13,289 nt of DNA, from positions 1 through 13,289 of the forward strand of contig JBDRJQ010000001.1 of NCBI GenBank assembly GCA_043814765.1, read 5' to 3'. Position numbers: made by a program. Source of the stretch: Nanobdellota archaeon (lineage in GTDB: Archaea > Aenigmatarchaeota > Aenigmatarchaeia > QMZP01). Within the stretch, counting starts at the first letter, position 1. Each line of letters opens with the position of its first letter. Of the stretch, positions 1-6,000 are shown in pieces.

Positions 1-3000
1 CGATAGCTTTATATACCCCTGTTCGAATTTATAAACTAGAGTGTTAACAAATATCTAGTGATGTCATGTTGCACTTTAGGCTTGAGGAGTTCATGAACCC
101 CGGAAAGCCTGCAATCTCAATAGCTTCCAAGAACTTTTCAGTTTGCATGGAAACAGCACCAATTAGAACATTAATAAGAATGCTGATTGCAAACAGAAGC
201 AGAAGGGTAGCTGTTGTAGATAACAATGGTGAATTCAAGGGGTTTGTAACGGACTTGGATGTTCTCGGCTATCTTGGCGGGGACGAAAAATACAATAGTT
301 ATGTTACAAACAAAATGAAAGAAACCTACAAAAAAACAACAGAACGAAAAAAATATGGAATTGATTCGTCTGTTAAAAACATAATGAATAGTAATGTTCA
401 CACACTGACTGTTAAGCAAACTGTCAGGCAAGCACTTGATGCATTTAAAAAAACAGGTCAGGATGCATTTCCTATACTCAATAAAAAGAGGAAGGTTTTA
501 GGCATTCTGTCCAACAGAAATCTTGTGGAAGCTGTGTATAAGCAGGCTTCAATGAGAAGTTCAAGAGGATCAAAATTGATGATAAAACATATCATGGTCA
601 AACCCATGATAGTTAAGGAAAAGTTTCCAATAAACGAAGTTGCGAATATGATGTGTTTCGGAAAGTTTCGCAGATTCCCTGTAACGAACAATAAGATATT
701 AACAGGTATGGTAACTGCACATGATCTCCTTTACTTCTTGAGTGTGAACAGAGGCTTTGAACAACTGAAAACAGAAAAAGAAGCCATTAAAAAAATTGCC
801 AACAGAAACGTTGTTTCGATTGGGTTTGAAAAACCTGTTAGAGACGCAATAAAAATAATGCTGGCAAAGAAAATAGGCGCTATTCCGGTTACTGACGGAG
901 AGGAAATTAAAGGAATAGTAACGTTCACAGACGTATTAGATATAATACATTAGGCAATTGCAATGAAAATTGATGAAAAGTTGCTGGAATTTGCCAAAGA
1001 AACAAATAATAGTATAATCATTGTTGAAGGTAAGAATGACAAGGAAGCCCTCATGGCTATTGGAATTCTTGCCAAAGACGTAGTTGCAATCAACGGCAGA
1101 ACCTTGCTAAAGGTTGTGAACGAGGTTGCAAAGAAAGATAAAGAAGTCGTGATACTCACGGACTTCGATTATAAAGGAAAGATGCTTGCAGCAAAGCTAA
1201 CAAGGCTTTTACAGGCGATTAAAATACATCCAAACCCAAGATTGAGGAAGATGTTTATTGCCTTTGGCAGGCATCAAGTACAAGACATAAAGTATATCAA
1301 AGAGGCGAGCTTCAGAAAGAAACTTGCAAAGGAGGTTGATGATTATGTCAAAATTAGCACCGACTTCAACGAAGTACATAATAAAAGCAAATATAAAAGC
1401 AAAAGGAGTAATAGAGAAACCTGACGTAATAGGAGCTGTATTTGGTCAGACAGAAGGTTTGCTTGGTTCAAGCCTTGACCTGAGAGAGCTTCAGAGAACA
1501 GGAAGAATAGGAAGAATTGAGGTTAACATAAAATCCACAGGAGGAAACTCTGAAGGAGAAATATTAATCCCTTCTTCATTAGATGCTTCAGAGACAGCGT
1601 TAATAGCTGCAACACTGGAAACCATCGAAAGGGTGGGTCCTTGTACAGCTGTAATAAAACTTGACGGAGTAGAGGATACGCGTTCTATAAAAAGAAAATA
1701 CGTTGTTGACAAAGCAAAGGATATTCTCAAGGATCTTATAGATTCTGGCATACCTGACGCATCAGAAGTTTCAGAACAAATAAAAGAGGCCATTAGAACA
1801 GAAGAGATAACAAGCTTCAATGGATTACCTTGTGGTCCAAACATGATGGATTCTGAAGAGATAGTCATAGTTGAGGGCAGAGCAGATGTCTTGAACCTTT
1901 TAAAATATGGCATAAGAAACACAGTTGCTCTGGAAGGAACGTCAGTTCCACCTGCAATTATTGAACTAGCAAAAAAGAAAGTCGTTACAGTGTTTGTTGA
2001 TGGTGACAGGGGAGGAGAACTGATTATAAAAGAACTTACACAGTTAACAGAGATTGACTATGTGACATCTGCGCCAACGGGCAAGGAAGTCGAGGAACTT
2101 TCAAAGAAAGAGGTTTACAAAGCTCTAAGAGATAAAGTTTCTCCAGAACAGTTCAAGTTTGAAACAAATGGAATGAACACAGCTAACAACAATTACAAAA
2201 AAGAAACTGCAAATAGAGAAACTACTTATAAAAGACCTGCAAGCTATAGCCAGGACAGTAAGCCTGATACTAGGAGAAGGCCTGATAGAAATTTTGATAA
2301 AAAATATGATAGCAGGCCAAGAACTCCAACAAAAGCCAGACTAACAGAAGGTAACAAGGAATCATTTAAGAAAACGTTAGACGAGCTTGTTGGGTCCAGA
2401 GCTGCATATATATTTGATAATGATGACCAATTACTAGGAAAAGTTCCTGTAACTGAGCTTGAAAACACAATAAAAACAATGGACAATATAAAAGCAGTTG
2501 TTTTTGACGGAAAGATTGACAGGCAGCTTCATAGCACTGCTCAGAGAAAAGGAGTTAAATTCCTTGTTGGAATGGACAAAATGGATGTGGGTTTAACATC
2601 TGTTGTAGTTCTTTCAAGAAAAGATTTATAATAAAAGTTGCGAGTTCGAAAGTTTATCTTTCGAACTTTGCTACTTCTTTTAGAGTATCAACATGACTTA
2701 AGAACAAAGACCTGCAGCAATATCTTTCTAAACCTAACCTATCTAAGCTCCCTTTTATATTTTTGCCTGCTTTCTTGTCCTTTTGGAATTCTTCCCAGAG
2801 ATGACCAACAGGCTTTCCACAAGTCATGCAGCGAATAGGTATAATCATACTAACAAATACGAATAGATAGTTTATAAAGTTTTATTCAAAGTCTATAGAA
2901 TAAGAAGCCATACTTTCCATTTTTTATTATTTGAGCATAAAATAGCTTAAATATGTACTATTTTAATAATTATTACAGTTTTATTATTATGGGTGATATC

Positions 3001-6000
3001 CTTGAAGCACTTAAGTAAAACAACCTCAGTTTGTCCAGAATGCCTTAAGATAATAGCAGCTGAAATATTCGAAAAGGACGGAAAGGTTTGGATAAAGAAG
3101 AAGTGCGAAGAGCATGGTGCATTTGAAGACCTTTACTATGGATCATATGAAATGTATAAAAAAGCTGAGAAATTTGCTAAAGATGGTCGTGGCGTTGAAA
3201 ATCCAGCTATAACTAAAGACAATCCACTCTGCCCCTTTGACTGTGGTTTATGTAAATTACATAAAAGCCATACAGCTCTAGCTAACATAGCTATTACTAA
3301 TAGGTGCGATCTTTCATGCTGGTACTGTTTTTTCTATGCAGGCAAAATGGGTTACATCTACGAACCAACTCTTGATGATATAAAAAAAATGGTAAAGACT
3401 TTGAGAGACGAAAAGCCTGTTCCATGCAATGCTCTTCAGTTAACCGGTGGAGAACCAACACTGAGAGACGATTTAGTTGAGATAATAAAGATAGCCAAGG
3501 ATGCCGATATAGATCATGTTCAGTTGAATACAAACGGAATAAAAATGTCAAAGGATCTTGATTTAGTTAAAAGGGTAAGGGAAGCAGGCGTTAATACAAT
3601 GTATTACAGTTTTGACGGTGTTTCAGCCAAAACTAATCCAAAAAATCACTGGGAAACCCCTGAGTTTTTAAAAAACTGCAGAGAGGCTGGCGTAGGTGTT
3701 GTATTTGTGCCAACTGTTATAAAAGGGTCAAACGACAGCGAGTTGGGTGACATTCTAAGATTCGGTTTCAAGAATATAGATGTTGTTCGAGGGGTTAATT
3801 TTCAGCCAGTTTCATTAGTCGGCATGATGCCACGCAAAGAAAGAGACAAGCACAGAATAACAATACCAGACACGATTCAGAAAATAGAAGAACAGACGGA
3901 TGGTGAGATATCAAAAGATGATTTTTATCCAATACCAATAATATCAGCATTTACAAGGTTTGTTGAGGCTATAACAAACAAACCCCGCTATAATCTAACA
4001 TCTCATTTTGCATGCGGTATGGCCACATATGTATTCAATGATAATGGTAAAATGCTGCCAATAACCAGATTCGTTGATGTTGAGGGCTTGATGGAATACC
4101 TCAATGAAAGAGCTGATGAATTAGAAGGTGGCATGAGCAAATACGTTACAGGAGCCAAACTACTCTTTAAGCTTAAGGGATTTGTTGATGCTAAAAAATC
4201 ACCAGATGGCATGAGCTTCCCAAAAATAATATACAATGCTCTGATAAAGCATGATTACCGATCATTAGGTGAAATGCACTATAAATCGCTATTTGTTGGC
4301 ATGATGCATTTCATGGATTTGTACAATTATGACATAGAGCGTGTTAAGCGCTGTTGCATACACTATGCAATGCCTGACGGAAAGATAGTGCCTTTTTGCA
4401 CATTCAATGTTATGCCTGAAATGTATAGAGACAAAGCACAGAAAGAACACAGCATGACAATTGAAGAATGGGAAAAGAAAGTTGGCAAAAGCATGAAAAC
4501 AGACATGTATAAAAGAGATGCAAAGTTTCTAGAAAACACAGACCTTTACAAAAAAACTTATTCTAAATAGAGCATTTACAAATAATATAAGCAACCTTAG
4601 ATAATTATTACTATATGGCATCACCCTTTGATTTGACACTAACAGTCACATATTTTGGCATACTGCTAGGTGTTGGGATATTGATAGCAAACGTTCTTAA
4701 AAAAAGGAAAATACCAGACACCTTTTTCCTGCTTCTTTTGGGTCTGGTTCTAGGTCCAACAATTGCTTTAAACCCAATTGTAATGCAGTATATAGACTTA
4801 GGAAGCGGTATAGTCAACGTATCCGCAATGGGCGAAATACCTGATTTCTTGCGCATACTGGCTCTGATACTCATAGTTTTTAGCGGAACCTTTAAACTGA
4901 GCTTCAGCCTTTTCAAAAGGGTTTCTGGAGTTTCTATAAACCTTGCTATTGTGGGTGTATTGTTTTCCACAGTTGTGTTAGGATTTTCAGCTTATCTGAT
5001 ATTCCAGATAGATTTTGTTATAGCTCTTCTTTTAGGAGCTGTTATATCAGGAACAGGCAGCAGTGTAATATTTGCTTTCGAGGATGTTTTACCGAAGTCT
5101 AAAAAAGCATTATCTGTACTCAAGATAGAATCTGTATTCAACTCGCCACTAACAGTTTTGCTGCCATTCATTTTTCTTGATGTTGTTGCACTAGAACCAG
5201 GCGCTTTATTTACACCACTAGTTTACATATCACAGTTCTGGGAGATGATAGCTGCTGGTGCGGGCACCGGCCTTTTAGTTGGTGTTTTCATTGCAATTTT
5301 CCTTAAGCGCATGGAAAGGGGATATGGAGCATTGTTGTTGTTTGCCGTAGCGATTATAACTTACGCGCTCTCTGAAAATATAGGCGGTTCTGGCATATTG
5401 GCTGTGGCTGTTTGTGGTCTTGTTGCAGGAAAGATGTTGGTAAAACACAAGAATGAAGTAGGAGAATTTGATGATCAGATTTCGGAAATGTTAAGAATAG
5501 CTGTATTCACAATGTTTGGTGCGCAGGTAACATTATGGATGCCTATGAAAGAATTGGCAATGATACTGTTGTTCTTCTTAATAACTGTCATGATAAGACC
5601 GATTTTCGTAATGTCGGTTCTTGGCAAATTAAGAAAAGAGCTAACTAGGTCTGATTTAATCTTGATGAATTTTGTCGCACCAAAGGGAATAGCAGCAGCT
5701 GCGATGGCACCGATAGTCGTGGCCTCTATTATTAGCTTGGCAAACCTTACAGTGCTTGCGGATAGGCTCGTTAACATAATATTTGTAATTATAATGCTGT
5801 CCATACTTCTGAGCACAATCATTGCTAAAATTATTAGCTATAATCAACTCAAAGGAAGCTCTTGCAACAGTAAAAAAGCAGAAAGGGTAATTGAAAAGAA
5901 AGTGAAAAAAACCAAGAATCCTGAAAAGAAAAAAGAGCTTCTCATGGATGCATCTGAAAAGAAAACAGAGAAACAGAAGAAAGAAAGCACGCAGGCACTC

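Follow-up and report, generated by a model that had tools for sequence, protein, structure and literature searches.

We propose that a DPANN archaeon of the phylum Aenigmatarchaeota makes its own ether lipids, including membrane-spanning ones, with a native tetraether synthase (Tes) and with a protein of another fold, P0272, as its GGGP synthase, a joint reading that we hold to be moderately likely. In that role, P0272 would most likely complete a pathway from acetyl-CoA to tetraethers. The tes gene lies in the window, which is the whole stretch of DNA analysed (13,289 nucleotides of contig JBDRJQ010000001.1), and P0272 is encoded elsewhere in the same genome (G000).

The tes gene and its surroundings

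As the earlier note had stated, the window encodes a full-length Tes (Tetraether synthase Tes / GDGT-MAS, 2993..4570, + strand). The intact 525 aa ORF scored 745.5 bits against NF045702 (cut-off 450), combined the PF23545 and PF04055 domains and matched PDB 7TOL over residues 8-495 (E 3e-151). Judging from an SD-like GGTGAT at 2992-2997, the true start is probably TTG 3002; a promoter scan, which uses a bacterial consensus, did no better than shuffles. To map residues, we used the 7TOL alignment, excerpts of PMC9433317 and conservation across 289 homologs. All metal ligands were present: the rubredoxin site CX2CX20CX2H (C14/C17/C38/H41), the Cys3-His N-cluster (C80/C84/C87/H90), the radical SAM motif CX3CX2C (C105/C109/C112) and the C-cluster (C341/C454/C469, with the labile Met M438 and a conserved Y458), whose cysteines were placed by conservation and not by the numbering in the PMC9433317 excerpts. 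Among the 5'-dA contacts, the equivalents of F106, Q268 and S271 were kept and N replaced R210, likewise in Sulfolobales rows; the R275 position was M, as in 17 of 132 phylum rows. The enzyme as such is an ordinary member of its family.

The core genes that the earlier note had listed on this contig were all identified by family matches: dnaG primase (1342..2631, + strand, NF003108 over cut-off), rpoN for RNA polymerase subunit N (2654..2848, - strand, divergent from tes), the chromosomal protein MC1 (7633..8022, - strand, PF05854) and thrS (8085..9980, - strand, NF003068 over cut-off). Their products were 76%, 77%, 82% and 80% identical, respectively, to those of a same-genus genome (G049), where gene order around tes was the same except for a 4.4 kb insert. 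Immediately 3' of tes lies a CPA1 cation/proton antiporter gene (4615..6048, + strand, PF00999), the most frequent tes neighbour in the order (within 5 kb in 19 of the 74 order relatives whose tes locus was examined at that radius). By the same measure rpoN lay near tes in 9 of the 74, which revises the count of six genomes first noted.

Is this gene native? The Tes discovery paper voiced the doubt that DPANN Tes may be host DNA binned with a DPANN genome (Zeng et al. 2022; PMC8941075, excerpts), and Hadarchaeota Tes proteins are indeed 61-65% identical to the window Tes. Against this reading, full-length Tes was found in 77 of 90 order relatives (the earlier count, of the Tes N-terminal domain, was at least 72), or in 78 of 91 order genomes over the NF045702 cut-off with G000 included. 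Across the phylum it passed the cut-off in 212 of 371 genomes, among them the single-contig assemblies G037 and G339, and it occurred in two further DPANN phyla, in 72 of the 151 genomes sampled from one and in 33 of the 101 from the other. The tes contig correlated in tetranucleotide composition with the remaining genome at r 0.982, and its codon use was ordinary; the G049 locus reached 0.983, and none of 16 further Tes loci exceeded 0.81. A Tes phylogeny, which the earlier note lacked, followed genera: over a set that left out 150 representatives, genus labels changed 41 times (minimum 39; mean 65 and lowest 60 in 200 shuffles), and 13 of 21 multi-member genera were monophyletic. Prevalence, conserved gene order with core-gene neighbours, matching composition and a genus-following tree counter the host-DNA reading, which is largely refuted and in our estimate extremely improbable; Tes is almost certainly native, as first claimed.

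Native does not mean simply vertical, because the tree was mixed at family level and the order holds at least two Tes types. The two same-genus genomes, G000 and G049, were not sisters on it, with sisterhood not rejected by the AU test (p 0.13). One Hadarchaeota Tes type nested among Aenigmatarchaeota rows in three trees; a single clade of all Hadarchaeota Tes was not rejected (AU test, p 0.08), and we therefore claim no donor for a transfer.

Ether-lipid genes and the absent GGGP synthase

The near-complete ether-lipid pathway announced in the earlier note was recovered from mevalonate through GGR, the PcrB-type GGGP synthase excepted. Thiolase, HMG-CoA synthase and class II HMG-CoA reductase were over cut-off, as were MVK (TIGR00549), PMK (TIGR01220) and diphosphomevalonate decarboxylase (TIGR01240), clustered on contig C29; by its gene content, the mevalonate route is the classical (eukaryote-type) one. 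A search for type 2 IDI found none, the genome encoding type 1 instead. One polyprenyl synthase was present, together with a G1PDH slightly below cut-off (405.9 bits, cut-off 413), two DGGGPS-like UbiA proteins below cut-off (215 and 217 bits, cut-off 296), a CarS over cut-off and two GGR-family proteins above the TIGR02032 cut-off, with a ferredoxin gene beside GGR. For the inositol head group we found MIPS and an AIPS-like protein (the latter below cut-off), and NifS/IscS-like and IscU-like genes and ferredoxins were also present. For SAM synthetase, G000 yielded no identifiable gene; one protein singled out by motif matched no family. As for Grs/Gms ring or bridge enzymes, none of 12 B12-type radical SAM proteins was over an NCBIfam cut-off among the top five families listed.

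GGGP synthase (PcrB) was absent from the assembly, as the earlier note had said: family profile search with PF01884 found none, and neither tblastn nor a 21-sequence HMM of relatives' GGGPS, with filters off, found a copy or fragments. Its commonness in relatives stood with new counts, 40 of 46 in the family (previously 19 of 20) and 82 of 90 in the order. Across the phylum, GGGPS or P0272 occurred in 203 of 231 Tes-positive genomes versus 46 of 140 Tes-negative ones.

P0272 at the GGGP synthase position

P0272 is a 289 aa protein of unknown family (G000:C37:25450-26316, - strand) with, by its model (pLDDT 94), a cis-prenyltransferase fold. The fold of GGGPS is a TIM barrel. The best Foldseek match of P0272 was Rv3378c (E 4e-10, TM 0.57), and comparison with ten cis-prenyltransferase-fold chains gave VIA Z 16.7-21.5. 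Scores against PF01255 (26 bits, cut-off 27) and TIGR00055 (29.9, cut-off 109.55) fell short, and in the Asp-Gly-x-Arg loop D44, G45 and R47 were present in 106 of 107 rows. P0272 is a member of the cis-prenyltransferase superfamily and is not UppS; that it is a divergent UppS was ruled out, since an ordinary UppS is encoded separately in G000.

P0272 sits where GGGPS is usually encoded, and the two rarely occur together. Family relatives carry G1PDH-GGGPS-(UbiA) near ftsY, and G000 carries G1PDH-DGGGPS-P0272 midway along a 47 kb contig. In the order, P0272 occurred in 4 of 91 genomes, all four among the 9 without GGGPS (p 5e-5); the other five, including G084 (95% complete), had neither. In the phylum, which we searched with a single protein query that could miss distant copies, it occurred in 25 of 371 genomes, and GGGPS was found in 2 of the 25 carriers versus 224 of 346 others (p 2e-8, kin not being independent). 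Contrasts between P0272 and GGGPS drawn separately at genus or family level, eight in all, pointed in the same direction, and four of these each lay within a single genus (g1, g121, g127 and g134). At about 1.5 kb, 15 of 25 P0272 loci had G1PDH or UbiA as a neighbour, a number that rose to 19 once wider flanks were taken for nine. In 56 metagenome loci of P0272 homologs, UbiA-like genes were found in 31 (five of these neighbours confirmed by Pfam), G1PDH in 8 and GGGPS in none. In GGGPS-less genomes of families f18, f21 and f22, P0272 accompanied Tes in 9 of 10, against 14 of 94. A 136-genome sample, from the phylum of an Archaeoglobaceae record, gave one broken P0272-like copy in a genome that has GGGPS, so the exclusion is claimed for Aenigmatarchaeota only.

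Could GGGPS merely be unassembled in this 88% complete genome, and P0272 an accessory gene? Five of the 90 order relatives lack both genes, and G277 (91% complete) retains a full GGGPS on a separate contig, together with P0272 and a second G1PDH. Yet 23 of 25 P0272 carriers lack GGGPS, including G002 (96% complete, 7 contigs) and G288 (93%, 8 contigs). With the GGGPS-poor families set aside, the same holds for 13 of 14 carriers versus 22 of 238, and the P0272 locus in G000 is whole and mid-contig. We therefore regard a gap in assembly as very unlikely, and the absence of GGGPS probably reflects replacement by the unrelated P0272.

The predicted pathway, its alternatives and known systems

From its position and its exclusion with GGGPS, we consider it likely that P0272 is a non-homologous GGGP synthase. 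Every activity in the following scheme is predicted, as are all roles given to P0272 residues. Acetyl-CoA would pass through the classical mevalonate route (MVK, PMK, DMD, IDI-1) to GGPP, and G1PDH would supply G1P. P0272, in place of the TIM-barrel enzyme, would form the first ether bond: its loop T43-D44-G45-T46-R47 would bind Mg and the GGPP diphosphate, R/K184-H185-x-K187 would hold the G1P phosphate, and activation of the hydroxyl would fall to a conserved His or Glu. Saturated archaeols would then arise by way of DGGGPS, CarS, transfer of inositol phosphate and a GGR fed by ferredoxin. Tes would abstract H twice by SAM-radical chemistry and couple two phytanyl termini, with a carbon-sulfur adduct at the C-terminal cluster as intermediate, to give GDGT and/or macrocyclic archaeol; that it forms biphytanyl lipids is quite probable.

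P0272 might nevertheless act on another acceptor or chain, with other regiochemistry, or as a hydrolase, with GGGP or archaeol taken from a host or the environment and finished here by a native, active Tes. Hydrolases and irregular prenyl couplers are among its nearest relatives by fold, two genomes carry both genes (G277, and G227 with a weaker PcrB match), and lipid uptake by DPANN is documented (PMC8941075 and PMC7414124, excerpts). Such a function is unlikely, given that P0272 holds the GGGPS position by a G1PDH that has been retained and whose product would otherwise go unused, and that homologs occur in lineages that are called free-living or bear the names Methanoperedens, Hydrothermarchaeales and Altarchaeum. 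It is a little less probable still that the pathway is complete and Tes gives little or no GDGT, making only macrocyclic archaeol or staying silent, as it seemingly does in haloarchaea, which have Tes homologs without GDGT (PMC8941075, excerpts). MJ0619 yields both products (PMC9433317, excerpts), R275 is changed in the window Tes and no SAM synthetase was found in G000; against this, every cofactor ligand is kept, and Tes is retained in most order genomes and co-occurs with the ether pathway.

The committed step towards ether lipids in archaea is that of GGGP synthase, an enzyme taken as a marker of the "lipid divide". If P0272 is such an enzyme, replacement by another fold alters how pathway completeness is scored, a cis-prenyltransferase fold performs physiological O-prenylation, and the first ether bond in the lipids of archaea was invented twice. 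We slightly favour the view that this family repeatedly replaced PcrB GGGPS at its own site in Aenigmatarchaeota, and that it probably did so in Methanoperedens, Altiarchaeum, Hydrothermarchaeales and some Bathyarchaeia. Many DPANN scored as lipid-dependent would then make their own tetraethers. A native Tes answers the doubt of Zeng et al. (2022) and makes DPANN a further candidate source for the environmental GDGTs on which climate proxies rely. In the open-licence PMC and bioRxiv literature searched, we found no GGGP synthase of cis-prenyltransferase type and, on the question of a native DPANN Tes, only the papers cited here.

Near-complete diether pathways are described in some DPANN in excerpts of PMC12892359 (Micrarchaeota), PMC7414124 (Naiadarchaeales) and PMC8407114 (Aenigmarchaeota), the last deeming de novo membrane synthesis impossible for Aenigmarchaeota, and the supplement of Zeng et al. 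contains Aenigmarchaeota and Micrarchaeota entries. Those excerpts do not regard tetraether synthesis as native. Compared with MJ0619 of M. jannaschii (PDB 7TOL/7TOM, NF045702), the window Tes has all four metal sites and the equivalents of F106, Q268, S271, M439 and Y459. It differs in belonging to the NPKNHW-type branch (N for R210, short loop) common to Sulfolobales and Archaeoglobales, in M for R275, in its DPANN host and in a product that is only predicted. The cis-prenyltransferase MM_0014 of M. mazei O-prenylates glycerol in vitro, which its authors think unlikely to be physiological (PMC8131916, excerpts). P0272 shares the fold and the Asp-Gly-x-Arg diphosphate loop of MM_0014, UppS and the M. 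tuberculosis diterpene synthase Rv3378c. It is, however, only 12-18% identical to them and below family cut-offs, and unlike them it has an acceptor side with invariant H89, R92, N94, H185 and K187 and an extra conserved C-terminal part ending in GPEIYEF. With PcrB GGGPS (PF01884; TIGR01768/TIGR01769), P0272 shares the site by G1PDH and DGGGPS, in near-mutual exclusion, whereas it has no sequence match to PcrB and its model resembles cis-prenyltransferases.

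Ownership of the tetraether synthase gene

The source genome (G000) is assembled in 39 contigs totalling 859 kb (completeness 88.2%, contamination 1.2%), and the window is its entire contig C1. As the earlier note had claimed, the window encodes a full-length tetraether synthase (tes, 2993-4570, + strand; 525 aa), which scores 745.5 bits on NF045702 (cut-off 450), matches PDB 7TOL with an E value of 3e-151 and adds one more member to an established family. When the 7TOL alignment was mapped to the residues described in the accessible part of PMC9433317, the ligands of the rubredoxin site, the N-cluster and the radical SAM cluster were all found to be kept, together with M439 and Y459 (M438 and Y458 in the window protein); these columns are nearly invariant in an alignment of 289 homologs. 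At the R210 position the protein has Asn, a residue shared with Sulfolobales rows, and R275 is replaced by Met. The neighbours of tes encode a CBS protein, a toprim protein, an antiporter and an A24 peptidase in addition to the core genes listed in the earlier note (dnaG, rpoN, MC1 and thrS). A free-standing LAGLIDADG-like ORF (10096-11007, +), probably mobile, adjoins thrS in a stretch of 26% GC, and an ORF at 6052-6642 (-) has no family match and is kept at 38% in the same-genus genome G049.

Zeng et al. 2022 (PMC8941075, in the part available) reported Tes in DPANN bins and suggested that hosts were its possible owners. Tes scores above cut-off in 78 of the 91 genomes of the order (the earlier note had its N-terminal domain in at least 72 of 90) and in 212/371 of the phylum Aenigmatarchaeota, G000 counted in both, including two assemblies of a single contig (G037 and G339); it is patchy within families f18, f21 and f22. 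Apart from a 4.4 kb insert, G049 keeps the gene order around tes, and its core neighbours share 76-82% identity, and the composition and codon use of the contig agree with those of the genome. Among the 74 order relatives with locus sequence at hand, whose flanks are of uneven length, rpoN and dnaG each lie within 5 kb of tes in 9, the antiporter does so in 19 and any window gene in 27, compared with none of 56 genomes from other orders; the earlier note had counted six genomes with rpoN beside tes. Because of this prevalence, gene order and composition, and of the genus and family label changes on the Tes tree (below), host contamination is a very unlikely source. Tes is the lineage's own, as first proposed, which settles the doubt raised in PMC8941075.

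History of Tes within and beyond the phylum

After 14 identical rows had been dropped, a FastTree phylogeny was built from 289, of which 132 come from Aenigmatarchaeota (231 matches there). Genus labels on 75 order rows required 41 changes, where 39 is the minimum and shuffled labels gave a mean of 65 and never fewer than 60. For family labels on 131 rows the number was also 41 (minimum 22; shuffle mean 87). Since only 13 of the 21 genera with multiple members are monophyletic, a long-tailed type is scattered over families and the backbone is poorly resolved, the sequences indicate that inheritance was not simply vertical. This long type, with N- and C-terminal extensions and a tail often rich in Gly/Cys, occurs in f1, f3, f27, f28 and other families (loci L137, L148, L136 and L233 among them) and is related to an Iainarchaeota clade. 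Tes frames of ~970-1000 aa at L149 (G022) and L199 (G019) are interrupted near residues 113 and 151 by what are probably inteins.

Sampling by phylum recovered Tes in 72/151 genomes for a Micrarchaeota record (G469 included), 33/101 for an Iainarchaeum record and 58/66 for a Hadarchaeum record. Two types occur in Hadarchaeota, with identities to the window Tes of about 40-49% and 61-64% (loci L247-L275, L344-L358). The second, closer one falls inside the Aenigmatarchaeota part of the tree, a hint of gene exchange between DPANN and Hadarchaeota, but an AU test does not reject a single clade of all Hadarchaeota Tes (p 0.08).

The ether-lipid pathway and its missing step

The near-complete ether-lipid pathway attributed to this genome was recovered. 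G000 encodes a mevalonate route (thiolase, HMG-CoA synthase, class II HMG-CoA reductase, MVK, PMK and diphosphomevalonate decarboxylase) followed by IDI of type 1 and one polyprenyl synthase, and also G1PDH, CarS, MIPS, an AIPS-like protein and two proteins each of the DGGGPS-like and GGR families, the polyprenyl synthase, G1PDH, DGGGPS-like and AIPS-like assignments being best matches below NCBIfam equivalog cut-offs. This set contrasts with the accessible part of PMC8407114, according to which Aenigmarchaeota are unable to synthesise membranes de novo. For DPANN, both near-complete diether pathways and the classical mevalonate route have been published before (PMC12892359, PMC7414124, PMC11052028 and PMC13473441, as far as available); the available parts of PMC11868695, PMC11186832, PMC12808674, PMC12669819 and PMC6431249 hold nothing further on DPANN membrane synthesis. 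The genome also has ferredoxins and genes resembling NifS/IscS and IscU. No SAM synthetase was identified in G000; in G049 a MetK-type enzyme adjoins ftsY (L168:4793-5902), and the same place in G000 lacks one. Twelve B12-type (HpnJ/BchE-like) radical SAM genes, many for 859 kb, lie on C2, C8, C12, C21, C26, C32 and C33, several adjoining glycosyltransferases or an STT3-like gene; none exceeds an NCBIfam cut-off among the matches listed. C32 also carries a heptose-pathway-like cluster (GmhA, HddA, GmhB, HddC-like) with an MtrA-like corrinoid protein (about 12.8-20 kb, L340).

GGGP synthase is indeed missing from the assembly, where neither PF01884 nor an HMM from 21 sequences found a trace; PF01884 is present in 82 of 90 order relatives. 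Family relatives share a ftsY-G1PDH-GGGPS-(UbiA) cluster. Its G000 counterpart, mid-contig on C37, reads ftsY, a gene of unknown family, G1PDH, DGGGPS and then, convergent, P0272 (C37:25450-26316 = L161:11451-12317, - strand), a 289-aa protein of cis-prenyltransferase fold at the GGGP synthase position. The ORF directly 5' of G1PDH (C37:22672-23562, +) has no family match and is kept in G049 at 72%.

P0272 as a candidate GGGP synthase

Of the 91 genomes of the order, 4 carry P0272, and each of the 4 belongs to the 9 without GGGPS. Across the phylum it is found in 25/371 genomes, and PF01884 in 2 of these carriers (G277, full; G227, weaker) versus 224/346 others, a comparison whose p values are overstated since related genomes are not independent. 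Eight separate close-group contrasts, four inside one genus, agree on this exclusion; the exception, G277, carries G1PDH in two modules, of which one includes GGGPS and the other a P0272 homolog (L475 on C22, and L389), possibly a transitional state or a binning error. G1PDH or DGGGPS lies beside P0272 at 15/25 loci (~1.5 kb flanks), or 19/25 after flanks were widened for 9 loci, and P0272 sits between the two in G002, G023, G264, G277, G288, G289 and G113. Searches returned 107 homologs (164 with a profile), among them proteins annotated as hypothetical and named for Ca. Methanoperedens, Methanosarcinales, Syntropharchaeia, Hydrothermarchaeales and Altarchaeum. A Ca. Hecatella record's genome holds one as well (1 of 6 tested). 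Their metagenome loci (n=56, some of the same species) hold UbiA-like genes in 31 cases, G1PDH in 8 and GGGPS in none. In a sample of 136 genomes from another phylum, that of an Archaeoglobaceae record, the single P0272-like copy is broken and shares its genome with GGGPS; the exclusion pattern above holds for Aenigmatarchaeota.

The AlphaFold2 model of P0272 (pLDDT 94) matches the cis-prenyltransferase superfamily, as does Atlas, which names no family; Rv3378c is the top Foldseek match, and VIA gives Z 16.7-21.5 over ten chains, MM_0014 among them. The simplest rival, that P0272 is a divergent UppS, is ruled out because a normal UppS is present on C29. Conserved in the homologs are the loop T43-D44-G45-T46-R47 and H89, R92, N94, H185, K187, Y207, Q209, E249, R257 and E258, which may be the counterparts of the UppS donor and acceptor sites. 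P0272 may ionise GGPP with the help of Mg, the free primary hydroxyl of G1P then capturing it; the saturated diethers would in turn serve Tes as substrate, through the mechanism that Lloyd et al. described.

We found no report of such a replacement of GGGP synthase in the open literature. The accessible part of PMC8131916 describes O-prenylation of glycerol by a cis-prenyltransferase fold in MM_0014, though not as a physiological reaction. P0272 has the same fold and is a candidate replacement of GGGP synthase that would constitute a new variant within the known archaeal lipid pathway.
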